Positions 6,807-55,144 of a stretch of DNA of 64,000 nucleotides are shown here, in pieces. How positions within the stretch are numbered: the first letter of the stretch is position 1; each line of letters begins with the position of its first letter. The notes below the pieces were generated by a model, which saw only the letters and a list, made by a program, of their open reading frames with translations, did no database searches and had not been told where the DNA came from. This stretch comes from Anaerolineae bacterium (GTDB lineage Bacteria; Chloroflexota; Anaerolineae; B4-G1; SLSP01). Position numbers and translations under genes: made by a program. Location of the stretch: NCBI GenBank assembly GCA_034437735.1, contig DAOTTS010000093.1:27705-91704 (forward strand), written 5' to 3'.

Positions 6807-6824
6807 TGAGCGAATGGTAACGTG

Positions 6825-6852: not shown

Positions 6853-6923
6853 AAGAGCTGAGGTTAACATTAACCGCCGACAAACATAGTGGGCGGCTAA
6901 CCGAGAAAAAAGAGGAAGAATCA

Positions 6924-14016: not shown

Positions 14017-14038
14017 TTAAGCGTTGATAGGAGAAACG

Positions 14039-37880: not shown

Positions 37881-40800
37881 TTACTCACAGGGTAGGACCT
37901 CTATAGTCACAGCTTCGGTTCCGCCCCACACTTCTGGAAAATAAAGTTCGGAAACTGTCGCCGGGAGACTATGATAGGTCCCCGGAAACTTAGCTCGCAT
38001 CCAATACCGTGCCTGATATGTCCCTGGTGAAAGCTGACGCGCGAAAAAGTCAGCCTGGCTTTCGTGATACTCTCTACGTTCAAAGGGATCTAACCACTCA
38101 ACCGGTCCAGAATCAAGGGCGCCACCTACCCCCACTCCCTCTGCTTGATCTAGCAGCCCATTATTCACCGCACGAGCCGATCGAATAGCAAATCCAACAT
38201 CCGATTCCCTATACTGGATCGGCACGAATCCAGCAGGGAATAAATCCCGGACCCGTACATAATGACGTGTTGCAGGAATCACCACCGTTAACCGTACTTC
38301 GATGATATCCCCAACCGCCACCTTCTCTGTTTGCAAACATTCCGTAGCAACAGGCACGTGAAGAGTCTCTGAGCCTAGTATCTCTTGACGCGACATCTGA
38401 CAATATTGCCGATTGATACTCATCCCTCGGCTCTGGGATGATACCTCATCTATGGGCTGAAAGAGATGCAGGCTTGAGGCATAAAACAAACCACCGCTCC
38501 CAGACTTTCGAGTGAGAGATAGCAAATTGATGCCGTGCCGAAGCTCTTCTCCCAACGGAAGATCGAACGTCAATCCGGCTCCCAGCCTATCCTCACGCGT
38601 AGAGGAATCGTCCAAAAGAGAATGACCGTTGAGGGAGACATCGAAATCAAACGTACCCGTCGCAGAATCGTATTCTGCCATATACGTCGCTAATGAGGTG
38701 CTTGCCCACGCAGTCTCATAGACTGTGGGCCAACGGTCTAAGCGTCGAGCGCTCATAAGCCATCTGACAGCCTGAGGGAGGAGAGGGTCATCCGGTGATA
38801 AAACGGTGAGTGCCTCAACCGCTAAAGCCGTCACCTGGATATCCGTGGACCAGTGCTGACTATCAACATCCTCCCAATGTGCCCCCGTTGCAGTTATCCT
38901 GGCCTCAGATTGCAGATCTCCCAGCAACATGGCAACGCGAGGATCTGAGGGATCGACTGCGCCCAGCGCCAGCGCCAGATGAAAACGACCGGCTACCCCC
39001 AGGGCTTGGCGATCTCGATAAAGAATTGTTGCTGCCCCTGAAGGCCAAGGGCGATCCGCCTGAGAGAGCACCCGAATGGACAAAGCAAAATGAGGATAAC
39101 GCGAATCTGTTTGCAGGGCGCGCGTCATCATGGTCTCGATATAGTCCAGAGACCGGTCGATAACCCGGTCGGAGATGGGAAATCCTGCCGATCTAGCCCG
39201 AAGCAGGGTCATCGCCACATAACTTGTCATATGCAAGTTACTCCAGTCTCGCCACCACCCCCACCCCCCATCGGGATTCTGTCTCATCTGGATGCATTCA
39301 AGGGCTTCCGTGACCAGCGCCTCCATCTCTTTGACGTCCGCTTGTACCGACACATCCTGCATCTCCACTGCCTGTAAAGTAGCCAGCGACGTGAGTACCC
39401 AACTAGTCACGGCATCTGTGGCCCCATAGCTCGGCTGAGTGAGAAGTCCTTCCATCTGATCAATCAGACCAGAGGTAAGTGAAGTCTCAACGCTGAGTCT
39501 CAGTGCACTCGACATCGTCGCATTCATCGGGACGTGAAAAACTTCAATCCTCTCACCCGCTTCTCTTAAGACACCAGACGCGCCCTTGACATCGGGCATA
39601 TCCCACCGGTGAATAGGAATCGGATCGTCAAGGGTCATAACATCACGATAATCGCCCGCTTCAGCAGAGAAACTCAGCGTAGCAGAGGGCAACGAATCCT
39701 GGGACGCGTTCAAGGCCCAAAGAACCGGCATGCGCCCCATAGCCGGCACGACCACTTCTTGCACCAAGTTGCCCTCTACCGCAACCCCCTGAGCCTCAAT
39801 AGTCACTAGAGCGGTGAAATCTGAGGGCGTCCTGTTATGAACCACCGCCACAATCTCGGTTCGGTCCCCCACGACCAAGAATTCGGGGACCACGGGTTGT
39901 ACTGAAAGAGGTTGACGAACCTCAATTTCACGCTCAGTAACTCCTATCTCAGTCTCTTTTGTCGCTGCGGTCGCTCGCACCCGCCAAGTTGTTAAAGAAT
40001 CCGGGAGCTTCACCGATACCTCAACTTGACCATCTGGACCAGTTCTCAAAGCAGAATCCCAAAACGCCGTATCTGGGAAGTCCTGACGGATTCCAGGTAC
40101 TGTGGGCACTGTATCTCCTCCCCCAAGACCGGCTGGACCCTCCGAAAAAGCATAACCACTGGACGCTTCTATCTCCTCGCCCCATCGATTCATTAAAACG
40201 AGCAAAGTGTGACCTGACGAAACAGAAAGAGGATGCTCGCCATAGAAAGCTTCAACGATGGTTTGAGCCTCTGGCCCCCGTTTCAAGTCAAGTATCGCCT
40301 TATCTACGATCGAAAGGCTCACTTCGGCATCCACAGGCTGCCCCTCGTGATCGGAGGTTCGAACGGTCAACCGAGCTTCCTCACCGGGGCTGTACGTATC
40401 AAGATCCCCTTCAATTGAGACATCTAACAGATATTGAGACGGACTGACAGACACGTTAACGTAGCCAGCGCGCACATCGGGTCCCTGCTCGTCGGTCGCC
40501 GGGCGCACAGCTAATGCCGATACGTAAACGTTAGGCGCGTAGGCTTCCTCAATGGGTAGTTCAATGACAGGGTTAGGCTGATCGAAGACGAATCTCTTCA
40601 CCTTCAGCAAACTATCACGCTCCACGGTGAGCAACAATTGATAAGTCCCGGTAAAAGGAACCGGCACTAGGATTTGAGCACTCTCACCCACGTCGTAGAC
40701 CTGTGCGTCAGGCTTAAGAGCCATAACATCAGAGGTTGGATGCCACCCAAAGGAATCATCTCCGCTTACCCAGAGGGTCGTTTCCACAGCCACATCGTGC

Positions 40801-43800
40801 CCTTGTGCATCCTCGCTCTCCAACCTGACCACATAGTTCCCACTCCTCGGTGGGTTGAACACAGCAAGCGCATCACCATCAGCATCAGTCGTCAAAGTCG
40901 TTTCGGAGACAATCGAATCAATCGCTCGCCCAGGCGTGTTCTCACCATCATCAGATGCCCATGTTCTTCTGACTAACATCGCCGTGATTTCACGCTCCGG
41001 CAAAGGTTCGCCATCCCAATCGACAGCCCGAACCTCGATCTCAACACGTTCACGAGCGCGAACCATCCGTGCTTTCGGTCGAAGTCCAAGATACAGGTCA
41101 GCTTGATGAACAATCGCCTTACCAACAGCCGCAACGGGATCAGAAACGGGCAACTGAGACCTATCTGTCACTCGAACGTTCAAAGTCCACCTCTGGGACT
41201 CAACACTCTCGGAATCGCCCAAAGGGGTCAAGTCTGCCGGGAACTCCAAGAGGAGTCCCCCTGATTCATCAAGCGTACTTTTGCCTTGAGTAATCACCTT
41301 AGAAGACGCCCCAAAGGAATGACTATTCCACTGCCATCCCAGCTTGGACAATCGTTCAGACTCTCCCATGGCATAAGGAGCTGCCCTGAGCTCCCAATCA
41401 ACGGACCCATTTGAGAGACTCCCACCAGAGAAGTAGTCAGCCGCCACATGAAACTGCACGACCTCACCTTGACGGATATGCATAACATCAGGGAATACAT
41501 CCACTTGGAACGGCGACTTATGATATGCCTCAATGCTGACCCGCTTTGAGCCCCCGCCCATCCTCAAGGTTGCACGGTCACTGTTCTGTGAGTGAATCGA
41601 GGCATTGAGAACATATTCGCCTAATGCGATCATCTCTTCCAGATGGATCGAACCCGAGAAACTGCCAAACTCCGACAACGTAAGGGTTTCAGAATAGATC
41701 GGTCGCATATCGATAGTTTGCAGCGTTACGTCCACCTGAGTCTCTGCTCCCGGCACTTGATATGTACCTTCATACCCCTCACGCACCAACCCGTGGAAGT
41801 GCAACGTTTGCTCTGGTCGATAGAGCTCCCGATCCGTCTCCAGGAAAATACGAGAGGCTGGCGAGAGACCAGGGGCAAAATTGAGGCCGAACTCCCACGG
41901 AGAGGCCTCGCCAGACCAACCGGTCATTGCAATTCCGAAACCTGGTTCGCCGGCGGCCCCAATCACCGCGGCCACACGATTCCAGAGATTATCAACGGGG
42001 CTGATCGGGATTCTTGCCAAGCCTTCGTCATCCGTAGTTCCACCGGCAATGAGCAATCCTTGGTTGTCGATTAACCGCACCGCCGTACGCGTGATAGGCG
42101 ATCCGCTCTCCAAATCCGTGACCCAAACAACAGCCTCATCCCGCGTCAACTTAATGGAGATGTGACGATCGACAACGGCAATACCTAATCGACGAGGCCC
42201 GTAGTTTTGTCCCGGGATTTGCCACTCAAGCCCGTATAATCCAGTAGGAAGTGCACCACGCAATCTACGTAAGTACAGAGGAACGAGTTGACTCTGGTTG
42301 GGCGATAGATCGAAATCCTCAACCCATTCCCGCAATACGTCTCCCTCAGCGGAGGAATCCTGCCTGATAAACGTCGATTCGTCATATTGGCTGAGGACGA
42401 ACGAGATATCATCGGCATTCCTAGCCCCCAGATAAAGAACCGAGGGCTCGTCAGCGTTCATCGCCACCATGTCAGCAGCCATAGGCAGTTCTAAACGCAC
42501 AGGAAGATCTCCCGTGACGAAACATAAAGTTGTGGATTCTTCCAATGTATGCCCATAGATGTCGGAGACGCCGGATAAAACCTCAACACAATACTCTGTG
42601 CGAGGTTGGCGTTCCCATTGAAGGGTATATACGTTCGATATCTTATCGTAATATGTGTACAGACGCTCATCTTCAGGTTCGGGATCGATCTTTACATTAT
42701 CAGCCAGGGTCTTTTCATCGATGGCACCTGCAAAGTTGAGTTGGACAGGTCGGTTAAGTCCAACCAAAGTTTCGTTGTCATCCGGCGTATATCGAACGAG
42801 TTGGGGTTCGGAAACCGTATGAAAGGACCACATGCGCGGATTCTCCAAAGGCGCGCTGGTCCGCGCACGAGCTCGCGGACTCACCTGCACCGTGTAATCT
42901 GAATCCAGAACGAGCCTATCTGTCGGTGTGAATATCAACACAGCGCCATTATCACGCCAGCGAATCGTACCTGGGACAATGCGCTCGTCTTCGCTGACAA
43001 GATTGAATTCGCGTCCGGTGATTGCCTGATCCATAGGTGTGTTGAACGTAACACTAATGGCCGACGCCAAACGCACCTGTGCAAATCCAGACTCCGGAAA
43101 AACCGTCGTTATCCGGGGAGGAGCGGTTTCAAACGACCAATTAAAAGTTTCCTGAAGAACAGCCCCGCTTAGGCTTGCAACGCCTGAGGATAACGTAACG
43201 TTATAGCGCTCGCCGGCGCCCCACCCTGAGATGGGAGTGAAACGATAGAGCGAGGTATTCACCCACTCAGCTCGCCCCAGAACGGAAGGAGAGAACGTCA
43301 AGGGTAACTCAAGACACTCACCATCAGCTTGAACATACTCACCAACACAATGAATGGGAACAACGGGATGATTGAAAGCCAAGAGGATGTCTGTATCCCC
43401 GCGTAAATCAGAAGCACCATCTGGAGGATTGATTTGGGTAACGAGTAGCGGAGATACAGTGGAAAAAGCAAAGTTATACTCATCACCCATTTGAAGCCCA
43501 TCTTTTGATTGAGCAGCTGGGCCAAGCGACACTTGATAACGGGTTTGAGGATTCAAGCTCTCAGGATAAAATACCAATTCGGAGGTGTCGTCCCAGGCAA
43601 ACGCCCCCTCAACCTCTGGATAGAGGCTGAACGATTGGACGACACTCTCCTTATCCATAGGTTGATCAAAGACAAGCCGGATCTGGGTCGTCGTCGAGAC
43701 CACTTCACCTCGCCGAGGTTCAAAGTCTAGCACAAACGGGGGATACGGATCCGTGATTACAAAAGGCGTCGAAGTCGGAGGTAAGGTAGTTTCTGTCGGG

Positions 43801-43931
43801 GCAAGCGTCTCAGTCGCAGCCTCTGGCTGCGACGTTGCTCGAGTGGGTGATGTAGGTGTAGAAGTCTGACAGCCGGCCAAAATCACCACTAGGATGCAGA
43901 TGGCCAGTCCGATGAAACTGCGCTTATGCAT
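37881..43931 (-). CDS. Alpha-2-macroglobulin family lipoprotein (2,016 aa), thioester-less
   Basis: It has a lipoprotein signal (ILAGCQT). N-terminal SbsA-Ig-like repeats carry the P.V..F.P motif, followed by MG domains. An alpha/alpha-toroid TED region reads QNPDGGWGWW. At the thioester position GLLTQPSYGATDAV replaces the CGEQ thioester motif. Confidence 0.85.
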   Translation of the reverse strand: MHKRSFIGLAICILVVILAGCQTSTPTSPTRATSQPEAATETLAPTETTLPPTSTPFVITDPYPPFVLDFEPRRGEVVSTTTQIRLVFDQPMDKESVVQSFSLYPEVEGAFAWDDTSELVFYPESLNPQTRYQVSLGPAAQSKDGLQMGDEYNFAFSTVSPLLVTQINPPDGASDLRGDTDILLAFNHPVVPIHCVGEYVQADGECLELPLTFSPSVLGRAEWVNTSLYRFTPISGWGAGERYNVTLSSGVASLSGAVLQETFNWSFETAPPRITTVFPESGFAQVRLASAISVTFNTPMDQAITGREFNLVSEDERIVPGTIRWRDNGAVLIFTPTDRLVLDSDYTVQVSPRARARTSAPLENPRMWSFHTVSEPQLVRYTPDDNETLVGLNRPVQLNFAGAIDEKTLADNVKIDPEPEDERLYTYYDKISNVYTLQWERQPRTEYCVEVLSGVSDIYGHTLEESTTLCFVTGDLPVRLELPMAADMVAMNADEPSVLYLGARNADDISFVLSQYDESTFIRQDSSAEGDVLREWVEDFDLSPNQSQLVPLYLRRLRGALPTGLYGLEWQIPGQNYGPRRLGIAVVDRHISIKLTRDEAVVWVTDLESGSPITRTAVRLIDNQGLLIAGGTTDDEGLARIPISPVDNLWNRVAAVIGAAGEPGFGIAMTGWSGEASPWEFGLNFAPGLSPASRIFLETDRELYRPEQTLHFHGLVREGYEGTYQVPGAETQVDVTLQTIDMRPIYSETLTLSEFGSFSGSIHLEEMIALGEYVLNASIHSQNSDRATLRMGGGSKRVSIEAYHKSPFQVDVFPDVMHIRQGEVVQFHVAADYFSGGSLSNGSVDWELRAAPYAMGESERLSKLGWQWNSHSFGASSKVITQGKSTLDESGGLLLEFPADLTPLGDSESVESQRWTLNVRVTDRSQLPVSDPVAAVGKAIVHQADLYLGLRPKARMVRARERVEIEVRAVDWDGEPLPEREITAMLVRRTWASDDGENTPGRAIDSIVSETTLTTDADGDALAVFNPPRSGNYVVRLESEDAQGHDVAVETTLWVSGDDSFGWHPTSDVMALKPDAQVYDVGESAQILVPVPFTGTYQLLLTVERDSLLKVKRFVFDQPNPVIELPIEEAYAPNVYVSALAVRPATDEQGPDVRAGYVNVSVSPSQYLLDVSIEGDLDTYSPGEEARLTVRTSDHEGQPVDAEVSLSIVDKAILDLKRGPEAQTIVEAFYGEHPLSVSSGHTLLVLMNRWGEEIEASSGYAFSEGPAGLGGGDTVPTVPGIRQDFPDTAFWDSALRTGPDGQVEVSVKLPDSLTTWRVRATAATKETEIGVTEREIEVRQPLSVQPVVPEFLVVGDRTEIVAVVHNRTPSDFTALVTIEAQGVAVEGNLVQEVVVPAMGRMPVLWALNASQDSLPSATLSFSAEAGDYRDVMTLDDPIPIHRWDMPDVKGASGVLREAGERIEVFHVPMNATMSSALRLSVETSLTSGLIDQMEGLLTQPSYGATDAVTSWVLTSLATLQAVEMQDVSVQADVKEMEALVTEALECIQMRQNPDGGWGWWRDWSNLHMTSYVAMTLLRARSAGFPISDRVIDRSLDYIETMMTRALQTDSRYPHFALSIRVLSQADRPWPSGAATILYRDRQALGVAGRFHLALALGAVDPSDPRVAMLLGDLQSEARITATGAHWEDVDSQHWSTDIQVTALAVEALTVLSPDDPLLPQAVRWLMSARRLDRWPTVYETAWASTSLATYMAEYDSATGTFDFDVSLNGHSLLDDSSTREDRLGAGLTFDLPLGEELRHGINLLSLTRKSGSGGLFYASSLHLFQPIDEVSSQSRGMSINRQYCQMSRQEILGSETLHVPVATECLQTEKVAVGDIIEVRLTVVIPATRHYVRVRDLFPAGFVPIQYRESDVGFAIRSARAVNNGLLDQAEGVGVGGALDSGPVEWLDPFERREYHESQADFFARQLSPGTYQARYWMRAKFPGTYHSLPATVSELYFPEVWGGTEAVTIEVLPCE

Positions 43932-44107
43932 GAATAACCCGCCTCCTGAAAGACAAACCCAAAACAGAGCCGCACGCTTCTTAAATCACGACATCACAAA
44001 TCGGGAAGTGTTTTGCGCGAGGGATATATCCAACTGACGAAGAGGATTTCCCCATAATTTCATACGAAACCTCAACCCCATCATATTAACCCAGCATTGT
44101 CAAAACG

Positions 44108-44148
44108 CAAGCCACAAGCCCTCATTTTGAATGAGGGCTTGTGGCTTG
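44108..44148 (-). terminator. Strong hairpin terminator (19-bp stem, 3-nt loop) downstream of the YugP-like gene
   Basis: The stem pairs CAAGCCACAAGCCCTCATT with AATGAGGGCTTGTGGCTTG. On the minus strand it is followed by GTTTTG. Confidence 0.6.
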
Positions 44149-44176
44149 ACTCCAGATAGCTGTCTGATGAGCGAGG

Positions 44177-44869
44177 TTACCGCCTGCGGCGACGCATCCC
44201 GCCAAGAACCATCACATAGTACAACATCGTGGAAAGAGATTGCGCAAGAGCTGCAATGTAGGTAAGTGCAGCAGCGGATAACACCTTACGAGCTCCACGC
44301 ACCCCCTCAGATCCACTCACAATACCACTTTGTTTGAGAAGTGAAATCGCGCGCCGGCTGGCATCGAGTTCTACCGGCAGCGTCAGCAGAGAAAACACCA
44401 CAGCACCGGCGAAAAAGAAGACCCCGATAGTCGCAAGAGATTGGGAGCTGAGCATCATCCCTATGACAAAGAGAATCGGACCTAACCACGATGTAAAATT
44501 CACAACGGGGACTAGCCCGGACCGCAACCGAAGCAGTGCGAACGCTTGCGCATCTTGAACCGCGTGCCCAAACTCATGAGCTACAATCGCAACCGCCCCT
44601 ACGGATGAAGATCTGGCGACGTTGTTAGAGAGGCGCAAAACCTTCTTTCGGGGATCATAGTGATCGCTTAACTCGCCCTGCGTGCCCTCAATATGAAGCG
44701 AAAGCCCCGTGTGTTTCTGCAGCAACCGCGCCGCTTGCAGGCCATTAATCCCTGCATTGTTGGGTTTATCCAGATACTCACGATAGGTACTCCGCACTTT
44801 CCACTGCGCATAAAGCGCCAAGAGCAACGCCGGCAAACTGATCAGAAAATACGTCGGATTCCAAAACAT
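44177..44869 (-). CDS. Membrane zinc metallopeptidase, YugP-like (HExxH)
   Basis: It has an N-terminal TM helix, a zinc-binding motif HEFGHAVQD, and C-terminal TM helices. Confidence 0.7.
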   Translation of the reverse strand: MFWNPTYFLISLPALLLALYAQWKVRSTYREYLDKPNNAGINGLQAARLLQKHTGLSLHIEGTQGELSDHYDPRKKVLRLSNNVARSSSVGAVAIVAHEFGHAVQDAQAFALLRLRSGLVPVVNFTSWLGPILFVIGMMLSSQSLATIGVFFFAGAVVFSLLTLPVELDASRRAISLLKQSGIVSGSEGVRGARKVLSAAALTYIAALAQSLSTMLYYVMVLGGMRRRRR

Positions 44870-45161
44870 ACCGGCATCAACCTCCGAATCTTATTCAGGA
44901 AAGACTCACAACCAACGTTACAATCAATCGTACGGCCAATCCTCAGGTTTTATGCTACTCAATCGTATTCTACCCGACTTGACTTAGAATTCCATAAGAA
45001 ACCTGCACCACTGAATGCAGGAATGACAAACGGACTACCTTTCTGACCTCAAAGAGGAAAAGATAGTCCGCTTTTATAGGCGACCCACTACGGACCTTCA
45101 CAGCCTATGGGAGAACTACAATACGCCACTTAGCCTGACGTATCCGAGTTATGTCTCCTTC

Positions 45162-45917
45162 TCATTCAGAGTCCGATTGACGTTTCTCATAATCGATGAA
45201 TCGGTAGCCCATCCCCCGCTCAGTTAGGATGTACTGCGGATTTGACGTATCCGGTTCAATCTTTTTGCGTAGGTAGTTGATGTACAGGCGCAAATAGGAG
45301 ATTTCGTCCTTATACTCATACCCCCAGACCTTAGATAGGAGTGTGCTATGGGGAACGGTCCAACCGGCATTTTCAATGAGGTGACGTAACAGACGGAACT
45401 CGGTAGGTCTTAGTTTGATACGCTCGCCATCGACGATGACCTCAGCTGTGTTAAAATCTACACTAAGGTAATCGTCGATCTCCAGGACAGAGGTATCAGG
45501 CGGTGTCAAACTCTCAAACCGCCGAAGCACCGCTCTTACTCGGCTGACCAATTCGCGAGGACTAAACGGTTTCGTCACATAATCATCAGCACCGAGATCC
45601 AATCCTCGAACTTTGTCATCCTCAGAATCACGGACCGTGAGCATAATGATCGGCACGTTAGACGTTTCGCGAATCATCCGAAGCGTCTCGAAACCATCCA
45701 TCTCCGGCATCATCACGTCGAGCAGGACGAGGTCCGGCATCTTTTCGCGCACTTGATCGAGAGCTTCTAGACCGTTGTGAGCCTCAATGACCCGAAAATC
45801 CTCCATCTCCAGGTTGATACGGACGAACCGGATGATGCGCGGCTCATCATCCACAACAAGAATCAGGGGATGAAGGCCCGAGTCACTACTCACGGATGAA
45901 GGTAACGATCTGTTCAT
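45162..45917 (-). CDS. OmpR-family two-component response regulator
   Basis: The receiver reads LILVVDDEP...[11 protein letters not shown]...ITVRD. The winged-helix domain reads [12 protein letters not shown]...[12 protein letters not shown]...GYRF. Confidence 0.9.
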
Positions 45918-46128
45918 CTTCTTCTGTTGGCAGAATCTCTACGGAGTGAACACGGTTCCATGGATAAAGCACAACATTCGTTTCTGCTAAGAGATAGGTA
46001 ACCTCTCGCCCATCTCTCAATCGAGGACTTCTCAGTGCAATGTACTGAGCATTAGGATCAGGCAGTTCTTCAACGTCCCCTACAACTGCATCCTCGTTTT
46101 CAATGTGAACCAACAACGTATAGGGCAT
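45886..46128 (-). CDS. Small acidic hypothetical protein (80 aa)
   Basis: It has a strong RBS (AAAGGAG, 5-nt spacer). It lies between the FHA gene and the response-regulator gene and overlaps the regulator's start by 32 nt. Confidence 0.45.
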
Positions 46129-46196
46129 ATTAACTCCTTTGTGAACAAAAACCCATCAGGAATAACGATACTCAGCATTTTAAGGCAGCCGGGAGC

Positions 46197-46760
46197 TCAA
46201 TCCTCGTCACCAGGCGTATTCTTGTGAATGTGGACTTTGAGCTGCATAGTTCCAAATGTTAGTACATCTCCGTCACGAAATGCATAGGGAAGGTAAGGGG
46301 TCACCCGCTCCTCGTTCAGGAATGTTCCATTCGTGCTATCTAGGTCCTCCACGAAACAAGTGCCATCCCGAGTGTAAATACGGGCATGGCGTCTCGAGAC
46401 ACCTTGCTCTAGGCCGCCGTCCGTTGTCATATCAAGTTCCGGGAAAATCCCATGGGCTGCATCAAGTCGACCCACAAGGATTTCTCGATCTGCAGATAAA
46501 AGTATCTTCCGGCCCGTATTCAAAACATCAACCTCGATATTGATCGAACGGTTCTTCGCGTCTTCCCCTTCCCCATCCTGTCTCGGTCGAGCGGGTCGTT
46601 CATCCTCCTGATCGGGAAGAGGTTCGGTACGTAGAGGGCCACCCGAGGGCAGATAAGTTCCACACTGAACACAGAAAAGTGTACCGGGCAAATTATCAGC
46701 CCCGCACGATGGACACACTACCTTGCTATCCTTTTGAGTCATCGTTACCTCCCTTATCAA
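46197..46760 (-). CDS. Zinc-ribbon / FHA-domain protein
   Basis: The zinc ribbon reads CPSCGADN...CVQCG. The FHA region reads ILVGR...GVSRRHARIY...DLDSTNGTFLN. Its start overlaps the upstream stop as ATGA. Confidence 0.8.
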   Translation of the reverse strand: MIREVTMTQKDSKVVCPSCGADNLPGTLFCVQCGTYLPSGGPLRTEPLPDQEDERPARPRQDGEGEDAKNRSINIEVDVLNTGRKILLSADREILVGRLDAAHGIFPELDMTTDGGLEQGVSRRHARIYTRDGTCFVEDLDSTNGTFLNEERVTPYLPYAFRDGDVLTFGTMQLKVHIHKNTPGDED

Positions 46761-48220
46761 GACGAAGGAATGGAAAGGGCCCGTGTCCCATACCGAAGTT
46801 TTTTGCGCCCTTCAACTGTTGGCCCAGTACCCTGTGCGAGGCGTCCTACCTCCAGCATCGCAGCACGCCCCAATTCTCGATATCCCATATCAAACAAATG
46901 CGTTGCAGCAGATTCCAGATAACGCGTAGCCTGTTGCGGATCACCTGACTCAACAGACTGCCAGGCCTTCTCCTGAAGGCGGAAGACACTCAAACGGGCG
47001 ACCAGATTGAGCAGCCGAGGTGGAACCGATGTCTCCTCATGATTGTACGTGAAGTCAATGTGAACGTCCTGCTGCACACTAACGGTCTCTGAAGACTGGA
47101 CGTCCTTACCCGTAAGCTCCAATCTCATAATGCGCTTCGTGCCAATTTCATCATGATTCACAACCAATTCTAGAAGCAAGGTCAACGTATCCCGCCCAGA
47201 AACGTCCCCTATCTTGATAGACTGCCCCCTCTCAATAGGAAGAATCTCCATATGAGGAGAAACCCGAAAGGCGTTACGCAGCTCCACGTAAGGAACGACA
47301 CTAGCAAGCAGTTCCGTTTTGCGCAACACAAGATTAGTCAGTCCTTTAATCTCCGATTTCAGAGTTTCTCTTACCTTGGAAGGACTGTCGATGTAATAAG
47401 AGACACCGCCGCCGTAGCGCGCAACACTCTCGAGAAACAAATCATTCCAGTCTTCACCGATGCCAAAGGCTGAAATTCCTATACCATCATTGCCAGCCCG
47501 CCTTGCCGCTCGGAGCGCAAGCTCTTCATCACCATACGTACGCCCATCAGTAAACAGAATCACGTGATTAATCTTGTCATCAGCCCGGTGCCGTTGGACT
47601 TGTTTGATACCGAGAGACAGACCTTGATAGATCTCAGTGCCTCCGGCAGCAGTCATAGCTGCAATAGCCGATCGAAAACTATGCTGGTTACTAACGCTAT
47701 CGGAGGTCTTGATAACCTCAGCGCGATCACTGAAGGCAACCAAAGCTAAATGATCGTTTGGATGCAGAGAATCGACAAGTTCGTTCACTGCCATCTTAAC
47801 GTTATGCATCCGAGTCCCACGCATGGAGGTGCTACGATCAATGACCAATGCCAGATTCAAACGCTGGCGCGAATCGCGCAATTTCTCTTTCGGATGCACA
47901 TCCACCACCACGTAAAGCATCTGCCCATGCGACATCGGTTGGAGGGTCTCAGAGTTTAACAAGATCGATAAACTAATGGGAGCATCCTTATTCCGCCCCC
48001 GTTTGATCCGCTGTCGGTCATAAGCCCGGCGAAACGTTATGTCACCGAGCACTTCATAGGCCTCCTGAACCAAACGAAAGCGTGCAGCATCTCCGTGCGT
48101 TGCATCAGGATGATACTCGCGGGCTTTTTGACGGTAAGCCCTTTTAATCACATCTCGATCAGCATCCTCACTAACATCTAGAATACGATAGTAATCTCGA
48201 TTAGGATTAATCTCAACCAT
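46757..48220 (-). CDS. J-domain (DnaJ) / von Willebrand factor A domain protein
   Basis: The J domain reads DYYRILDV...AYRQKAREYHPD. The vWA MIDAS-like region reads LALVIDRSTSMRG...LVAFSD...ILFTDG. Confidence 0.8.
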   Translation of the reverse strand: MVEINPNRDYYRILDVSEDADRDVIKRAYRQKAREYHPDATHGDAARFRLVQEAYEVLGDITFRRAYDRQRIKRGRNKDAPISLSILLNSETLQPMSHGQMLYVVVDVHPKEKLRDSRQRLNLALVIDRSTSMRGTRMHNVKMAVNELVDSLHPNDHLALVAFSDRAEVIKTSDSVSNQHSFRSAIAAMTAAGGTEIYQGLSLGIKQVQRHRADDKINHVILFTDGRTYGDEELALRAARRAGNDGIGISAFGIGEDWNDLFLESVARYGGGVSYYIDSPSKVRETLKSEIKGLTNLVLRKTELLASVVPYVELRNAFRVSPHMEILPIERGQSIKIGDVSGRDTLTLLLELVVNHDEIGTKRIMRLELTGKDVQSSETVSVQQDVHIDFTYNHEETSVPPRLLNLVARLSVFRLQEKAWQSVESGDPQQATRYLESAATHLFDMGYRELGRAAMLEVGRLAQGTGPTVEGRKKLRYGTRALSIPSS

Positions 48221-48242
48221 AATAGGTTAGGCTTTCGAGAAT

Positions 48243-49232
48243 CTACAAATCAGACAAATTCACTTGTGTATAAATCACAGTCACATTGTCGTTGCCGCCG
48301 GCTTCATTGGCAGCTTCGACAAGCCGCAGACATGCTTCTTGGGGATCCTGCGGATCAGAAAGTATGCGCCAGATCGATGACTCCTCCATCATATTCCATA
48401 ATCCATCGCTGCACAATAACAACCGATCCCCATCTTGAAGCGCATTAGTCGTAACATCCACCTCAAGCCCATCGGTTTGACCGATAGCCCGGTAGAGCAC
48501 ATTTCTTTGCGGATGAACGAGTGCTTCTTCTTTAGAGATCTGTCCCATCTCAATAAGTCGATTTACAAAAGAGTGATCGCGGGTTAAGCGCTCAGGTGAT
48601 GACCCATTCCGCAGTAAATAGGCTCGACTGTCCCCTACGTGCCCGATAAATAGCCGACTACCAAGAACCAATCCATAGGTCAGAGTGCTCCCACTACCCG
48701 GCAACTCACGAGCAACAGCCCGGTTAGCCCGCGAAACAGCATCTCTAACCACATCAGTAAGCGAGGGTTGATCCGCCCCCCGTTCCGAGCCCAACAGCAT
48801 CGGCAAGTATATGGTCGAAATCAAATGACTGGCAGAGATCCTAAGCGCTAACGAGCTGGCCATCTCCCCCTTCTGATGCCCTCCCATACCATCCGCAACC
48901 ATGAAAAGGCCAAAAGGAGGAAGGGGTTGACCACTATCATTAGCATCATGCTGACCCGTAAAGACTAACAAAGCGTCCTCATTTTGCCCGCGGACACTCC
49001 CTACGTCGGTCAACCATCCTGATTGAAAGACCTGAGTATGCCGGAAACTCACCTGATTCGTCGATGCATGGCCGACATTCGCGGCTTCTTCTGCCTTATT
49101 GTCTTGGGGGGACGGCTCTGGTCCTACCTCAAGTTTCGACACCGGGTCTTGGGATAATGCTTCCGCCTCTTTGGCAGACGCCTCTTGATTCTTTCCGAAA
49201 AAACCACTCACCCATTCACGAATCGATGCCAT
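48243..49232 (-). CDS. PP2C-family Ser/Thr protein phosphatase
   Basis: It has the motifs GQNEDALLV, FMVADGMGGHQKGEMAS and LCSDGLW, and ends in GGNDNVTV. Confidence 0.85.
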   Translation of the reverse strand: MASIREWVSGFFGKNQEASAKEAEALSQDPVSKLEVGPEPSPQDNKAEEAANVGHASTNQVSFRHTQVFQSGWLTDVGSVRGQNEDALLVFTGQHDANDSGQPLPPFGLFMVADGMGGHQKGEMASSLALRISASHLISTIYLPMLLGSERGADQPSLTDVVRDAVSRANRAVARELPGSGSTLTYGLVLGSRLFIGHVGDSRAYLLRNGSSPERLTRDHSFVNRLIEMGQISKEEALVHPQRNVLYRAIGQTDGLEVDVTTNALQDGDRLLLCSDGLWNMMEESSIWRILSDPQDPQEACLRLVEAANEAGGNDNVTVIYTQVNLSDL

Positions 49233-49298
49233 TCATCACCTCGAACTCTAAAAAATAGCGACTCAATAACTCCGGCAAAGTCAAGCTGAACGTCAGCC

Positions 49299-51434
49299 CT
49301 AAGCTGGAATTGCGTAGACATTCCGGTCACTCGAACCAAAATAAACGACACCATCGGCGATCTTAGGCTGACCGGTTATTGGGCCATCGGTCTGATAGCG
49401 CCAACGCAGCGACCCATTGCGCGCATCAAAGCAGTAAAGCGCCCCATCAACCCCACCAACATAAACAGCGCCCTCATAAACCGTTGGAGTCCCGGTCACC
49501 TGGCCATCGGTCTCATACCGCCATACCACCCGTCCTTCGCTCTTATCCAGAGCGTAGATATTTTTATCCGCCGAACCAAAAAAGACGAGGTCCTCCCATA
49601 CAACTGCGGTTGAGGCAATGCCGCCACCCGTGCGGTATTTCCAAGCTGACCATCCTGAACGAACATCTAGTGCGTAGAAAGACCAATCAAGTGAACCGAC
49701 AAAAACGAGGCCGTCGCTGATAATAGGCGCAGCAAGAATACCGCGACGGGAGCGAAATCGCCATCGCATTTTACGATCCAACCCAAGAGCATATACCATC
49801 CCCATCTCACAACTAAAGAGGATCAAATTATCATTGACGAAAGGTTGAGACCGGATCTTGCCATCCGATGTATAATCCCAAGCTTTGCGCCCCGAATGCT
49901 GATGTATCGCATAGAGATTACGGTCATCGGAGCCAATGAAGAAGTGCCCCAGATCTGGATACGCAGAGGAGTAAACCCGCCCTTTCGTTGGCATCGTCCA
50001 TAACAGGCGCCCACTCTGGAGATCCACAGAATAAACCACATGATCTGTGGAGCCAAATACAACCATCCCATCCAGCACACAAGGCGAAGACGCAATCCCA
50101 CCCTCAGTAGGATACTTCCAGATGAAATCACCATTTTCGATATCAAGCGCATATACATTATGATCGTAGGAAGGCACGAGTAGAATATCATCGTGGAGTT
50201 GAACCGCACCGCGAACCTCATCCTCACAGGCAAACTGCCAAATCGCTTTCAGCACGCCCGTACCACCAAAAGCTTGCGTTTCGCCTTGGCTCCCTGTTCG
50301 CCCCAAACCTTTTGCCGACGAAACAGAAAGCAACGCTCTCCTAAATTCCTCTGTTGACCCCCATCGCTTGTTAATATCATATTCGAGAGCTTTCTCGATA
50401 ACATCAACCAGCTCTTTTGAGACTGTTGGGTTTGTCTTGTGAATGGGGCGTTCTGCAAAAGAAAACGGAGGCTCTAACCGAGGGTCCTGTTTGCTCAAAA
50501 TATGATGAAGGGTCGCCCCCAGGGCATAAAGATCCCCCCTGGGCTCAGCGATGCCACGGTACTGTTCGGGAGGCGAGTATCCCTCTGTGCCAATAGTTGT
50601 ACCTTTCTCACCGCTTTGAAAGAGCTTCGCAATCCCAAAGTCAACCAATCGAATGCGGTCTTGATCGTCAAGCATAATATTCGAAGGCTTCAGGTCACGA
50701 AAGATAATGGGCCTGGGTTTGTGGTTGTGAAGATACGACAAAACGTCACAAAGTTGCACAGCCCATTCAATGACCTGAGACTCAGGGAAGTAGCCCTCAG
50801 CCTCAGCAATCTTCACCTCTAGATCCTCGCCTGGCACAAACTCAATAACCAGATAACTCCTAGTCCCTTCCGTGAAAAAGTCGTAGACCTGTGGGATAGC
50901 AGGATGACTAAGCGTGGCGAGAATACTGGCTTCACGTTCGAAGTTACGAACGATCATTTGCCGGACCTGAGGATCAGACGCAGTATTGATCATCTCTTTA
51001 ACCGCACAAATCCGATTGACGCCGGGAAACCGTAAATCGCGAGCACGGTAAACCGCCCCCATGCCGCCGATCCCCACGACCCCCAAGATCTCATATCGAT
51101 CCTGCAATCTGGTTCCTGTAGGAAGCAGGCCTTCCTCAGGAGGATCGGCCTCGGCAGCAACACTGCTAGGCGAAACCTTTCGGGTCTTAATCTCCTCATC
51201 TTTTGATGTCGGTTTAGACGCTTCTGGGAATTCCACCACACGGGTCACCGACTCATTGTCCCCTTCCGCATCTGGTTCCGTGCTTTTCTCGTCAACTTGG
51301 GTATTGAGGTCCTGGGTATTGGACTCCAAGGAAAGGGGAATGTTCAAACGCTGTGACAACCCCCGCTTGCGTTTATCATCTCGCTTCTGAGAAAGATTTA
51401 TCGTGCTTTGGCTTAATTCATCCTCTGTTGACAT
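49299..51434 (-). CDS. Ser/Thr protein kinase with C-terminal PQQ-like beta-propeller repeats
   Basis: The kinase region reads GIGGMGAVYRARD, AVKEM and FRDLKPSNIML, with DFG and PPE motifs. Then come at least 7 repeats of the form VY.LD...G...W. Confidence 0.85.
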   Translation of the reverse strand: MSTEDELSQSTINLSQKRDDKRKRGLSQRLNIPLSLESNTQDLNTQVDEKSTEPDAEGDNESVTRVVEFPEASKPTSKDEEIKTRKVSPSSVAAEADPPEEGLLPTGTRLQDRYEILGVVGIGGMGAVYRARDLRFPGVNRICAVKEMINTASDPQVRQMIVRNFEREASILATLSHPAIPQVYDFFTEGTRSYLVIEFVPGEDLEVKIAEAEGYFPESQVIEWAVQLCDVLSYLHNHKPRPIIFRDLKPSNIMLDDQDRIRLVDFGIAKLFQSGEKGTTIGTEGYSPPEQYRGIAEPRGDLYALGATLHHILSKQDPRLEPPFSFAERPIHKTNPTVSKELVDVIEKALEYDINKRWGSTEEFRRALLSVSSAKGLGRTGSQGETQAFGGTGVLKAIWQFACEDEVRGAVQLHDDILLVPSYDHNVYALDIENGDFIWKYPTEGGIASSPCVLDGMVVFGSTDHVVYSVDLQSGRLLWTMPTKGRVYSSAYPDLGHFFIGSDDRNLYAIHQHSGRKAWDYTSDGKIRSQPFVNDNLILFSCEMGMVYALGLDRKMRWRFRSRRGILAAPIISDGLVFVGSLDWSFYALDVRSGWSAWKYRTGGGIASTAVVWEDLVFFGSADKNIYALDKSEGRVVWRYETDGQVTGTPTVYEGAVYVGGVDGALYCFDARNGSLRWRYQTDGPITGQPKIADGVVYFGSSDRNVYAIPA

Positions 51435-51824
51435 GACCCACCCTTGGCACTCTAGAGACTAAAGTGATTATAAAACAACCTGAAAGAAAAGGCAAACATA
51501 AAAAATGAGTGGTGGTACTCACCACTCAATATAATTCCACAAGAAAAAGGATACTCAAGATCCAGACGTAAACAACTAAACTTTTCCAGGACATCTATGG
51601 AAACCCAGAATCTTTTTAGCTACTCATGACCAGATCTGTAATACCCTATAGCAAAATCGATCAACAACCGTCCTCTTACCTTGTCACAGAATCTAGCCCA
51701 TTGTGAAACTGAAGGTTGTGATTGATCAAACATATGATATCCTACATAGAGCAAAATACCAACTCAATCAAAACAGAGACTCTCAATGGGTTAGGAGAGT
51801 TCACAGAAAGAAAGGGCAGGTGAA

Positions 51825-53564
51825 ATGCCAGTTATCCCCTCAGCGATACCCATGGAGATGGAGCTAGAATGCGGAAGTTGCGGACACCGCCAGCCTTTCG
51901 TGCTTCCCACTCCTGCGTGCGAACAGTGCGGACACGATTGGATGGAGGTTAAGTATAGTCCAGATAGGATCCAGGAGCTATGGCCAGATCTCCTTCAAAC
52001 GCGCCCGTTTACAATGTGGCGGTATCGTGAACTTCTACCGCTCCGAAACGAAGAGTACCAGATATCAATGGGAGAGGGAGGAACGCCCCTCCTCCACGCT
52101 AATAACCTGGGCATGATGCTTGGAGCACCTAGCATCTATATCAAGGATGAAAGACAAAACCCCACGAACTCTTTCAAAGATCGCCAGGCGTCTCTGGTTA
52201 TTTCGTTAATGAAAGAAGCCGCAGTCAAAGAGCTAGTCGTTGCCTCAACGGGCAATGTGGCCATCTCCTACTCAGCTTACTCCTCTTACGCAGGCATTAA
52301 ACTTTGGACGTTTATTCCGAGCCTCGTTCCCCCTGAGAAGATGCGAGAGATTGCCATCTATGGCAGTGAGGTCATCAAGGTTACCGACACCTATGACGCT
52401 ACCAAAAAGGTAGCAGCAGAATTTGCCGAACACAAGGGCATTCCGGCCGATCGCGGGATCCGCGATGTCGGAACTCGAGAGAGCATGAAGACGATCGGCT
52501 TTGAAATTGCCGAGCAACTTGGGCTAGAGCTGGGACCCTCAGAAAATGGAGCCCCATGGCGTGCACCGGACTGGTATATTCAAGCCGTGAGCGGTGGTAT
52601 GGGACCGGTAGGGTTCTGGAAAGGGTATACCGAGCTCTACGAAATTGGGCTCGTCGATCGCTTGCCGAAGTTGGCACTGGTTCAGGCTGAAGGGTGTGCG
52701 CCGATGGTCAATTCTTATCAGCTTGGATTATCTAAGGCTGAACCGGTATCCGATCCTGACACTCGGGTCATTACGATTGCAACGGGTTATCCGGGCCCAG
52801 CTTATGAATACCTCCAGTCTGTCGTCAGCCAGCATGGTGGCGCTTTTGTAGCAGCTTCTGACGAAGAGATCTTCCGCGCATTGCATCTCGTCGCAAAAAT
52901 GGAGGGACTATCAGTTGAACCGGCCGCGGCAACTGCATTCGCAGGACTGTTTAAACTTCTCAATCAAAACATCATTAAGAAGGATGAAACAGTGGTCGTC
53001 AATTGCTCGGGCCATACATTCCCAGTCGAGAAATTTCTCCTCGACGATGACTGGGTCAAGGTAGTTTCAACGCGCACAAACCGCAAGTCTACAAGCTCAG
53101 AGCCTACGGTACCGGCGAAATCCAAGGTCGGTCGCACCCCCACTGAGGGACTGCTGGGTGCGCTGGACCAGCTCGACGCACGCGTCAAGTGCGTCGCTAT
53201 CATTGAGGATAACCCCGACGCCACCCGACTATTGAGACGAATCTTGCAGACGCGAGGGAACTATCGTATTATCGAGGCGTACGATGGGCGAGAAGGTCTT
53301 GAGTTAATCCGCTCAGAGCAGCCAGATCTGGTATTACTGGATCTTATGATGCCTGATATCGACGGATTTGAGGTTATCGAAAAGCTGAAAAAAGACCGCC
53401 AATTTGAGGATCTGCCGATTATTGTAATCACTGCCAAGCAACTATCTCGACAGGAAAAAGAACGCCTCCAAGGGCAGATCAAGATGCTGCTCGAAAAGGG
53501 TTCGTTCATGGATGATGACCTACTTTCGGGAATTAAGGGACTCCTAGGATCTGAGGCCGGCTAA
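51825..53564 (+). CDS. Threonine-synthase-like PLP-dependent enzyme (fold type II) with N-terminal zinc ribbon, fused to a C-terminal CheY-like receiver domain
   Basis: The zinc ribbon is CGSCGH...CEQCGH. The PLP-lysine motif is NSFKDRQAS and a glycine-rich loop reads VSGGMGPVG. The REC domain spans roughly residues 455-575 (IIEDNPD...LLDLMMPDIDG...IVITAK). Confidence 0.8.
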   Translation: MPVIPSAIPMEMELECGSCGHRQPFVLPTPACEQCGHDWMEVKYSPDRIQELWPDLLQTRPFTMWRYRELLPLRNEEYQISMGEGGTPLLHANNLGMMLGAPSIYIKDERQNPTNSFKDRQASLVISLMKEAAVKELVVASTGNVAISYSAYSSYAGIKLWTFIPSLVPPEKMREIAIYGSEVIKVTDTYDATKKVAAEFAEHKGIPADRGIRDVGTRESMKTIGFEIAEQLGLELGPSENGAPWRAPDWYIQAVSGGMGPVGFWKGYTELYEIGLVDRLPKLALVQAEGCAPMVNSYQLGLSKAEPVSDPDTRVITIATGYPGPAYEYLQSVVSQHGGAFVAASDEEIFRALHLVAKMEGLSVEPAAATAFAGLFKLLNQNIIKKDETVVVNCSGHTFPVEKFLLDDDWVKVVSTRTNRKSTSSEPTVPAKSKVGRTPTEGLLGALDQLDARVKCVAIIEDNPDATRLLRRILQTRGNYRIIEAYDGREGLELIRSEQPDLVLLDLMMPDIDGFEVIEKLKKDRQFEDLPIIVITAKQLSRQEKERLQGQIKMLLEKGSFMDDDLLSGIKGLLGSEAG

Positions 53565-53588
53565 AGAACGCACAGCAAAGGCGTAGCT

Positions 53589-54860
53589 ATGACCACTATT
53601 CTTTACGTTGAGGATGATGTCTCAAGTCAGAGATTGGTTGAACGTATCTTAAGAGTCGAAGGTTTCGACGTCCGACTGGCGGACGATGGGATCAGTGCCA
53701 TAGAGATCGCTCAACAGGATACACCCGATCTTATCTTGATGGACATCAATATGAGTGGGTTGGATGGATATGAAGTCACCACTCGCTTGAGAACCGTTCC
53801 CGGTTTAGAGAAGACGCCCATCATCGCCGTCACTGCAGCAACGCTGCGGGGAGACCGGGAACGAGCCATCGTTGCCGGATGTACGGGGTATATTGCCAAG
53901 CCTATCGACGTGGATACCTTTGCCGATCAGGTGCGAAGTTACCTGGTCGGTTTGCAAGAACAGGTTGACTCCCCGGAGGAACGCGCTCAGTACCTTCTGG
54001 AGTACAATCAACGGCTCGTGAACCGACTGGAGGAAAAGGTTCGTGAACTTCAGAACGCAAATGCCGAGCTTCAGCGCGTTGAAAAGATGAAGTCTGACTT
54101 CGTCGTACTCGCCGGGCACGAGTTGCGCACTCCTCTGACCGTGATCTACGGTTATCTCCAGATTTTAATGGCGAATCCCAATATACCTGGCGAGGCGGAG
54201 GTGGAAGGTACGCCGACCAACCTGCTAATGAGAGTGGCAAAAGGCGTAGAGCGACTCAGTGATATGATTCAAGACATCCTCAATGTCTCCCTGATCGATG
54301 CCGATCGGCTGGAACTCTCTCAAGAACCGGTTTTTCTGAAATCGATTGTGCAGTCTGTACTGAATAACCTGCAAAACTTCGGCCCGTCCCGCGATCTCGT
54401 GTTCGATTTAGGACCGGGCCTCAAAGATATTCCCGTGATTCAAGGGGACCCGCGCCGACTGCACCAGGCCATAGGTAACATCATCGGAAACGCCATCAAA
54501 TATACCCCCAATGGGGGGACAGTACGTATCAACGCCGAGAATTTAGACGATGTCGTTCATCTCTGGGTTAAGGATTCAGGGGTCGGCATCCCGAAAGATG
54601 AGTTACCGCACATATTCGATAGATTTTACGTGCTAGAGGACACCTCCTTTCACAGCTCGAGCAAGACGGCTTTCAAAGGTGGGGGGTTGGGATTGGGACT
54701 AACGGTCTCCCAGGGCATTATTGAAGCCCACGATGGCAGGGTTTGGGCAGAAAGCCCTGGGCAGGATGAGGCTGAGCTTCCAGGAAGCACTTTCCACATC
54801 TTGTTACCCATTGGAAACCCTTTTGATCTCATGGAGGAAAAGGCTAAAAACCGAACCTGA
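53589..54860 (+). CDS. Hybrid sensor kinase: N-terminal receiver domain + HisKA + HATPase_c
   Basis: The REC domain reads ILYVEDD...ILMDINMSGLDG...VTAA. A coiled coil follows. The H-box reads LAGHELRTPL and the N and G boxes read GNAIKYT...DSGVGIP...GGGLGLGL. Confidence 0.85.
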   Translation: MTTILYVEDDVSSQRLVERILRVEGFDVRLADDGISAIEIAQQDTPDLILMDINMSGLDGYEVTTRLRTVPGLEKTPIIAVTAATLRGDRERAIVAGCTGYIAKPIDVDTFADQVRSYLVGLQEQVDSPEERAQYLLEYNQRLVNRLEEKVRELQNANAELQRVEKMKSDFVVLAGHELRTPLTVIYGYLQILMANPNIPGEAEVEGTPTNLLMRVAKGVERLSDMIQDILNVSLIDADRLELSQEPVFLKSIVQSVLNNLQNFGPSRDLVFDLGPGLKDIPVIQGDPRRLHQAIGNIIGNAIKYTPNGGTVRINAENLDDVVHLWVKDSGVGIPKDELPHIFDRFYVLEDTSFHSSSKTAFKGGGLGLGLTVSQGIIEAHDGRVWAESPGQDEAELPGSTFHILLPIGNPFDLMEEKAKNRT

Positions 54861-54941: not shown

Positions 54942-55015
54942 GGTGGATGTGGCCCAACGGTTAGGGCACCTGTCTGTGGAACAGGAGACTGTGGGTTCGA
55001 ATCCCATCATCCACC
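54942..55015 (+). tRNA. tRNA-His (anticodon GTG)
   Basis: The cloverleaf has G-1 plus the acceptor GTGGATG/CATCCAC and the D-stem GCCC/GGGC. The anticodon stem is CCTGT/ACAGG with loop CTGTGGA, and the T-arm is GTGGG-TTCGAAT-CCCAT. The discriminator is C. Confidence 0.9.
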
Positions 55016-55060
55016 CCTAAACAGGCTGGGCTTATCGGGTCCAGCCGTTTTAATCGATGT

Positions 55061-55134
55061 GCCCCCGTAGCTCAATCGGATAGAGTGGCTGGCTTCGAAC
55101 CAGTTGGTTGCGCGTTCAAGTCGCGCCGGGGGCT
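55061..55134 (+). tRNA. tRNA-Arg (anticodon TCG)
   Basis: The acceptor is GCCCCCG/CGGGGGC and the D-arm is GCTC-AATCGGATA-GAGT. The anticodon stem is GCTGG/CCAGT with loop CTTCGAA, and the T-arm is GCGCG-TTCAAGT-CGCGC. Confidence 0.85.
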
Positions 55135-55144
55135 CAAACGGAAG

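Follow-up and report, generated by a model that had tools for sequence, protein, structure and literature searches.

A threonine-synthase-like enzyme with a C-terminal receiver domain, encoded beside histidine kinase genes in Anaerolineae and related Chloroflexota

The window analyzed here is a stretch of 64,000 nucleotides (nt) from a genome assembly of an Anaerolineae bacterium (Chloroflexota; contig DAOTTS010000093.1, positions 27,705 to 91,704), and our subject is a pair of adjacent genes within it. The first, open reading frame 1 (ORF1; 51825..53564, + strand), encodes a protein of 579 amino acids in which a pyridoxal phosphate (PLP)-dependent enzyme domain resembling threonine synthase (ThrC) is joined to a receiver domain (REC) of the two-component type. 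The second, ORF2 (53589..54860, + strand; 423 amino acids), begins 24 nt past the ORF1 stop codon and encodes a histidine kinase (HK) with a receiver of its own. Both reading frames had been proposed at these coordinates in an initial annotation made from the sequence alone, and Pfam confirms the fusion of a PLP core (PALP) with a receiver (Response_reg) in a single product. Proteins and loci from our searches that need to be told apart carry working numbers (P and L, respectively).

Pfam and NCBIfam matches delimit the domains of ORF1, and its homologues share the layout. At the N-terminus lies a CxxC...CxxC ribbon (residues 14-36; 51864..51932, +; Cys codons at 51870, 51879, 51918, and 51927), a putative zinc-binding site in a region that aligns with the N-terminus of the NCBIfam family PRK08197. 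The fold-type-II PLP catalytic core follows (residues 80-396; 52062..53012, +); it covers profile positions 1-295 of 295 of PALP (E 7.9e-61, 206.4 bits against a cut-off of 35) and is also recovered by alignment with ThrC structures and by Foldseek. An inter-domain linker (residues 397-456; 53013..53192, +) leads to the C-terminal receiver (residues 457-575; 53193..53549, +), which is recognized by Response_reg (PF00072; residues 457-559, E 1.3e-21, 77.3 bits against a cut-off of 30.2) and by structural alignment with RR468 and CheY.

Residue conservation was assessed across 199 distinct fusions whose identity to the window protein spans 39-72%. The motifs named in the initial annotation, i.e., the zinc ribbon, NSFKDRQ, the glycine-rich loop, the acidic pocket, and the phospho-acceptor, are all present and turn out to be invariant or nearly so in this set. 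Within the ribbon, C32 and C35 occur in 199 of 199 proteins, and C16 and C19 in 191, with alignment gaps in the remaining eight. In the catalytic core, the PLP lysine K118 (NSFKDRQ; codon at 52176-52178), residues S141, G143, and N144 of the STGN loop (141-144), and residues S256, G260, and P261 of the SGGMGP phosphate loop (256-261) are found in every one of the 199 homologues; S395 is the likely partner of the pyridine nitrogen.

Public records of the gene (JGI, ENA, NCBI) place its start at M40 or later and give products of 540 or 498 amino acids, which lack the conserved zinc ribbon (window 51825-51941). We regard the 579-residue reading as the better one, since the alignment of homologues keeps the ribbon; the fusion proteins of all related loci are 520-610 amino acids long. 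The linker starts at a family signature, HTFPVEK...W, and ends at a GLLGALDQLD helix; both ends are conserved, and the middle varies in sequence and length among the homologues. An AlphaFold2 model of ORF1, computed from a 25-sequence alignment, has a mean predicted local distance difference test score (pLDDT) of 72.8, with values below 50 across residues 397-445, which are predicted to be disordered.

The receiver site consists of the acidic pair E461/D462, the phospho-acceptor D506 (53340-53342), T536, and K558 (53496-53498), which align with D/D, D53, T83, and K105 of T. maritima RR468 in comparisons with the RR468 and CheY structures. The lysine of an ITAK motif had previously been taken for the conserved receiver lysine. 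This assignment was wrong: it is K558, in LLEKGSF, that aligns with K105, and the ITAK motif contributes T536. K558 is retained in 195 of the 199 fused proteins, and D506, D462, and Thr or Ser at position 536 in 197 each; the remainder are frameshifted or truncated sequences, apart from a single truly degenerate member (P0127). Retention at this level argues that the receiver is under the selection typical of a working phospho-acceptor.

ORF2 comprises, according to Pfam, a REC domain (residues 4-115), HisKA (168-238, 45.8 bits), and HATPase_c (286-408, 92.3 bits); no HPt domain was detected with Pfam. Its receiver aspartate is D52 (53742-53744), its H-box histidine H177 (54117-54119; HELRTPL), and its ATP-binding part holds N301, a G1 box DSGVGI, and a G2 box GGGLGLGL. 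In 53 orthologues encoded directly 3' of a fusion gene, D52, T82, K104, H177, N301, and the core glycines of G1 (DxGxG) and G2 (GxGLGL) are invariant. The protein had been described as a hybrid receiver/histidine kinase 24 nt downstream; the gap, the N-terminal receiver, HisKA, and HATPase all stand, but not the class. With its receiver at the N-terminus ORF2 is a REC-HK and not a classical hybrid kinase, in which the receiver is C-terminal and usually feeds an HPt domain. A terminator scan of the gap between ORF1 and ORF2 revealed no credible terminator, and ORF2 is the probable cognate kinase of ORF1. That D506 would be phosphorylated by a cognate histidine kinase is suggested by the conserved adjacency and overlapping frames of fusion and kinase genes.

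The gene neighborhood was studied in 85 related loci and the window, with ORFs classified by phmmer using the window domains as queries. Where the downstream sequence was long enough (81 loci), a REC-HisKA-HATPase gene lies directly 3' of the fusion gene in 55, most commonly with a 4-nt overlap of the two frames. Whether fusion and REC-HK co-occur across Chloroflexota was a question raised by the initial annotation, and these loci answer it in the affirmative. On the other side, upstream sequence sufficed in 73 loci, of which 57 carry a same-strand histidine kinase gene directly 5' of the fusion gene. In 45 of these 57 it encodes a hybrid kinase with REC domains, mostly two (HK-REC-REC); three examples scanned with Pfam contain PAS and/or GAF domains, and one has many GAF domains. 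The three-gene unit of PAS/GAF hybrid kinase, PALP-REC, and REC-HK is the commonest layout and probably the ancestral one. It provides two kinase cores and several receivers, and encodes no DNA-binding, HPt, or other output domain; therefore, the core unit offers no candidate effector besides the PLP domain. No sulfur-carrier gene or other pathway-specific gene is conserved beside the fusion gene among the loci examined.

Relatives of the fusion are abundant. A scan of one genome per GTDB species, whose figures are lower bounds, confirmed at least 590 stretches that encode a relative, essentially all of them in Chloroflexota; the lineages among the matches listed include Anaerolineales, Caldilineae, Thermoflexus, Ardenticatenaceae, Promineifilaceae, Leptofilum, Villigracilis, and others. 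A search with the full-length protein yielded at least 120 homologue clusters at 62-89% identity, every one with PALP plus Response_reg, and all clusters with a source name stem from metagenome-assembled genomes (MAGs) of Anaerolineae or other Chloroflexota. In public databases the proteins are carried as 'threonine synthase' or 'pyridoxal-phosphate dependent enzyme'. This distribution indicates that the PALP-REC fusion is widely and vertically conserved in the Anaerolineae and their relatives and common in the phylum. The architecture had been called unusual, which holds for the literature, as we found no description of a PALP-REC fusion in open-access full text; it does not hold within Chloroflexota. 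Some genome matches span 2.1-2.6 kb and seemed to suggest an inserted domain between PALP and REC. We rejected this insertion, because the extra span is due to tblastn matching the REC domains of the upstream hybrid kinase.

Two loci of this collection deserve separate mention. One contig (L069, JADJSY010000060.1) is labelled as a MAG of Lewinellaceae (Bacteroidota); it is probably mis-binned, because its locus layout is that of the Villigracilis type of Anaerolineales. In a Thermoflexus MAG (L058, 8952-11611) the fusion gene, with an intact receiver site (DDDTK), starts 11 nt after a gene of the IF-2B/MtnA family; MtnA is the methylthioribose-1-phosphate isomerase of methionine salvage.

As to the chemistry of the enzyme domain, sequence and fold point in the same direction. 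The best match of ORF1 among solved structures is threonine synthase 2d1f (E 1.9e-48), followed by 2zsj, 1uim, and 6cgq. The best fold match of the AlphaFold2 model is again 2d1f, with a Foldseek TM-score of 0.81 normalized to the target. The class-I threonine synthases are thus the closest characterized relatives of the ORF1 enzyme domain. K118 aligns with the PLP lysine K61 of ThrC (1uim), and SGGMGP aligns with GNAGN. Among NCBIfam models the zinc-ribbon ThrC family PRK08197 (NF006050) ranks first, and scores above the TIGR00260 thrC cut-off occur in some fused subclades (e.g., P0287 at 180.9 and P0349 at 186). Cysteate synthase (TIGR03844, 100.6 bits; structure match 9k3c) and IlvA are detectable relatives. 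Pfam scans of the remainder of the window revealed neither hom nor thrB, nor any further thrC. A tblastn search with M. tuberculosis ThrC against 86 sequences (1.43 Mb at about 20 kb per locus, a small fraction of each genome) matched only the fusion gene, and none of the representative matches looked through for a Chloroflexota query was a clearly canonical ThrC. The reaction of ORF1 is most likely that of threonine synthase or close to it, judging from these similarities.

Searching cluster representatives with the PALP part alone brought up further PALP-REC proteins together with two additional architectures. PALP-REC-REC proteins of about 700 amino acids (P0124, P0125, P0470, P0492) form a large paralogous Chloroflexota family. 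Their operons have the order Cache/HAMP/GAF sensor, HAMP/GAF/PAS kinase, PALP-REC-REC, single REC, GNAT acetyltransferase (fusion genes at 10001-12091 in L089 and 10001-12100 in L090). The other architecture, PALP-LeuA_dimer, belongs to zinc-ribbon ThrC relatives of 610-620 amino acids (P0181, P0199, P0220, P0229); in P0181 and P0199 Pfam places a LeuA allosteric domain at the C-terminus, and the former scores above the NCBIfam ThrC cut-offs. The PALP-LeuA_dimer proteins look like feedback-regulated ThrC, and we know of no description of such a LeuA-domain ThrC. Since relatives carry REC, REC-REC, or a LeuA domain there, the C-terminus of the zinc-ribbon ThrC lineage appears as a recurrent attachment site for regulatory modules. 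Among unfused proteins, the nearest relatives come from cyanobacteria (Planktothrix and Pseudanabaena sp. PCC 6802; P0123, P0273, P0299, P0382), carry the annotation threonine synthase, and pass the ThrC cut-offs; their identity of 57-65% to Aggregatilineales-type fused proteins suggests either that the receiver has been lost or that a gene has passed from one phylum to the other. Their genes (L086, L087, L088) stand in scattered housekeeping contexts with no hom or thrB nearby.

In the window itself the position upstream of the fusion gene is taken by a divergent signalling operon, whose core (45162..51434, -) consists of genes for a Ser/Thr kinase with a PQQ propeller (49299-51434), a PP2C protein (48243-49232), a DnaJ-VWA protein (46757-48220), a Zn-ribbon-FHA protein (46197-46760), and an OmpR-type response regulator (45162-45917), all on the minus strand and assigned by Pfam. 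The response regulator is an orphan with no dedicated kinase gene in its vicinity. The gene order recurs in related loci (L001, L004, L005, L006, L010, L013, L016, L019, and others). A divergent Ser/Thr-kinase operon occupies this position in 12 of 73 loci, in all of which the fusion protein has an identity of 64% or more to that of the window, which marks the arrangement as specific to the window's subclade as far as the sampled loci tell. The REC-kinase ORF2 may have the orphan OmpR-type regulator as a further target. The wider operon (37881-51434, -) also includes a small ORF of about 80 amino acids, a Zn peptidase gene, and a gene for an alpha-2-macroglobulin-like protein of 2016 amino acids; a macroglobulin-like gene is likewise present in several loci with the recurring kinase-to-OmpR core. 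Villigracilis-type loci have a convergent cluster of response regulator, REC-HK, and HK genes nearby.

The two operons are separated by an AT-rich intergenic region of 390 nt (51435..51824), as initially described, with a GC content of 38.7% against 53.5% for the whole window. It holds two back-to-back promoter-like sites: for the fusion gene, TTGTGA (51716-51721), a 16-nt spacer, and TG-n-TATCCT (51735-51743) on the plus strand (51716-51743); for the Ser/Thr-kinase operon, TTGCCT, 17 nt, and TATAAT on the minus strand (51495..51467), with 10 of 12 consensus positions. Both blocks recur in the aligned intergenic regions of the window's subclade, the plus-strand block in 9 of 11, and both may well serve as promoters. 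At the other end, a tRNA pair (54943..55135) marks the 3' boundary of the ORF1-ORF2 unit. ARAGORN and Rfam identify tRNA-His (GTG) at 54943-55017 (+) and tRNA-Arg (TCG) at 55061-55135 (+), and the terminator scan places a terminator-like hairpin between them (55024-55046).

Elsewhere in the window, a small Ser/Thr kinase gene (5826-6806, -) is divergent from a gene for a 234-residue protein with FHA and OmpR-type winged-helix domains (6924-7628, +). This EmbR-like pair (5826-7628) points to transcription being controlled through Ser/Thr phosphorylation. A segment of roughly 1 kb with lower GC content (13021-14038; 0.46 vs 0.53), situated about 1.4 kb from smpB (11115-11585), yielded neither a convincing ORF nor an Rfam, tRNA, or tmRNA match.

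The explanation we favor, with a probability of roughly 55%, is that ORF1 is a response regulator whose output is a PLP enzyme of the threonine synthase type, switched by phosphorylation at D506, and that ORF2 is its operon partner kinase. A signal would reach the kinase layer, in most lineages, through the cytoplasmic PAS/GAF hybrid kinase encoded just 5' of the fusion gene. In the window's lineage, which has no upstream hybrid kinase gene, input would most likely enter via the N-terminal receiver of ORF2 and may be cross-wired to the adjoining Ser/Thr-kinase/PP2C/FHA module. ORF2 would autophosphorylate at H177 and pass the phosphoryl group to D506 of ORF1. The receiver switch, through T536 and K558, would then alter the seating of REC on the PLP domain or the dimerization of that domain, and catalytic activity would be raised or lowered. 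The reaction would most likely be the conversion of O-phosphohomoserine to threonine and phosphate, or else an elimination or replacement closely akin to it with a phospho-amino acid as substrate. For the donor/acceptor pairing, the effect on catalysis, and the substrate, we infer from conserved residues and gene order. A gated enzyme would be in line with the relatives in which LeuA_dimer or a pair of REC domains takes the same C-terminal place.

Several observations weigh against this explanation. The linker of the AlphaFold2 model is disordered, and the model, whose output comes without inter-domain confidence, is silent on whether REC packs against the PLP site. The receiver is C-terminal, which is atypical among response regulators with enzymatic outputs. 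The downstream REC-HK is missing in 26 of 81 loci, and Thermoflexus loci are without any kinase neighbor. With regard to the reaction, the initial description as threonine-synthase-like remains apt for the closest match by sequence and fold, but identity as a threonine synthase is not secured: ORF1 scores under both ThrC equivalog cut-offs (NF006050, 261.5 vs 303; TIGR00260, 139.5 vs 167.1), and the fusion gene adjoins hom or thrB in 0 of 86 loci. Residues T88, N154, S155, R160, and N188 of T. thermophilus ThrC, which we take to line the pocket for the substrate phosphate, align with V145, R210, G211, T217, and G257, so that none of the five is identical, and R218, which sits beside the canonical Arg position (T217 in the alignment), is not kept family-wide. 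Basic residues at positions 210 (R/K) and 213 (K/R) are conserved across the fused family, and zinc-ribbon proteins well over the ThrC cut-offs, e.g., P0158, also differ at the five pocket positions.

The remodelled pocket and the placement of the receiver can also be read in another way. The PLP domain might serve as input, with a PLP-bound ligand of the amino-acid type controlling whether the attached receiver takes up or hands on phosphate, so that the protein acts as a metabolite-gated node or phosphate sink between the hybrid kinase encoded upstream and the REC-kinase encoded downstream, and the real outputs lie elsewhere, e.g., in nearby OmpR-type regulators. Besides a substrate pocket that departs from canonical ThrC, this reading has in its favor that the fusion gene typically lies between two kinase genes, that the receiver is C-terminal as in sensor proteins, and that the surroundings often include OmpR-type regulator genes with no cognate kinase gene next to them, as in the divergent operon of the window and the Villigracilis-type cluster. 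However, the upstream kinases already possess several PAS, GAF, or Cache sensor domains, the LeuA-domain sister proteins resemble regulated enzymes, and even distant members of the family retain the full catalytic apparatus unchanged; a PLP-based sensor, though, would also preserve much of this apparatus. On balance we hold a sensory role to be improbable, if worth keeping in mind. We judge the broader version of the idea, in which a non-metabolic ThrC-like domain either senses a ligand through PLP or makes a signalling metabolite and thereby gates phosphoryl flow between two histidine kinases, to be just as doubtful. If it were true, a fold-type-II PLP fold would be an integral part of a Chloroflexota-wide phosphorelay, in the versions PALP-REC and PALP-REC-REC.

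A different departure from our preferred explanation of a phosphorylation-switched threonine-synthase-type enzyme retains the phosphorylation control and changes the chemistry. Cysteate synthase acts on phosphoserine and MetM-type enzymes on O-phosphohomoserine, and ORF1 might likewise catalyze another beta- or gamma-replacement or an elimination, perhaps yielding a specialized or signalling metabolite. Its scores below the ThrC cut-offs, its unlike pocket residues, and the detectable relationship to cysteate synthase are compatible with this, as is the existence of two paralogous REC-fused families in one phylum, found in signalling operons and never with hom or thrB. Yet ThrC models and structures are always the top match, well before cysteate synthase, part of the fused subclades and the closest relatives without a receiver do reach the ThrC equivalog cut-offs, and neighbor genes conserved for a sulfur carrier or a particular pathway are lacking; we consider other chemistry unlikely, somewhat more so than the sensory role. 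At the opposite end, the protein could be a housekeeping threonine synthase with an inert receiver of structural or oligomerization function and kinase neighbors by coincidence. Vertical conservation across the class at housekeeping-like identity (52-72%) and the name threonine synthase given by JGI, and for some subclades by PGAP, would agree with it; the absence of another thrC from the 1.43 Mb searched is a weak point, as this covers a small part of each genome. Near-invariance of the five receiver active-site residues in the 199 proteins is unexpected for an inert domain, however, a large majority of the loci have kinase genes flanking the fusion, frequently with a 4-nt overlap, and there is the second REC-fused paralogous family. 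We give this reading hardly any credence.

Anaerolineae and their relatives are abundant in sediments, microbial mats, and wastewater sludge, and the label under which these proteins are filed has consequences for metabolic work on them. With the 'threonine synthase' name of JGI, and of PGAP for some subclades, reconstructions of Chloroflexota metabolism may count a signalling protein as a pathway enzyme or, alternatively, overlook the signal gating of a threonine-pathway enzyme.

Compared with known systems, ORF1 is nearest to the class-I threonine synthases (M. tuberculosis 2D1F, A. aeolicus 2ZSJ, T. thermophilus 1UIM/1V7C), with which it shares the fold-type-II PLP core at about 32% identity over some 340 residues (TM-score about 0.8), the SFKDR lysine, the STGN loop, E-x-x-K-T, and the C-terminal (S/T)G(H/N) motif. 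It differs from them in its N-terminal zinc ribbon and C-terminal receiver, in having SGGMGP, DRGIRDVGTR, and STGNV in place of GNAGN, NSVNPxR, and STGNT, in falling below the TIGR00260 and PRK08197 cut-offs, and in a gene location apart from hom and thrB. The zinc-ribbon lineage of PRK08197, including the PALP-LeuA_dimer proteins, resembles ORF1 in the combination of ribbon, PALP, and a regulatory domain at the C-terminus, which in PALP-LeuA_dimer is a ligand-binding allosteric domain instead of a phospho-receiver. Plant threonine synthase (A. thaliana 1E5X/2C2B), a structural match to ORF1, is likewise set in its activity by an appended regulatory region: it is activated allosterically by S-adenosylmethionine, which binds an N-terminal extension, whereas the module of ORF1 is a C-terminal receiver that would respond to phosphorylation. 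IlvA, another fold-type-II PLP enzyme, is controlled by the binding of Ile and Val at a C-terminal, ACT-like regulatory module; in ORF1 the appended module is a two-component receiver. GabR and other MocR proteins use a PLP aminotransferase-like fold as the ligand sensor of a regulator and provide a precedent for a sensory PLP domain only, with a fold-type-I domain, a DNA-binding domain, and no phosphorelay.

The known outputs of response regulators are transcription factors and a small number of signalling enzymes. Among the latter, the CheB methylesterase, the diguanylate cyclases PleD and WspR, and the HD-GYP protein RpfG share with ORF1 a full D-D-D-T-K receiver joined to an enzyme and an adjoining kinase gene. 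ORF1 stands apart from them by its PLP enzyme of amino-acid metabolism in place of a signalling enzyme, and by a receiver at the C-terminus rather than the N-terminus. In the open-access literature we found no description of two-component control of a PLP-dependent enzyme of amino-acid metabolism. One soluble kinase, one receiver-enzyme, and a colorimetric assay of phosphate release would make up a system for studying receiver control of a dimeric PLP enzyme. The PALP-REC fusion is a new variant both of the response regulators with enzymatic outputs and of the allosterically regulated threonine synthases, and it probably represents an unstudied wiring of a signalling pathway straight to a metabolic enzyme.

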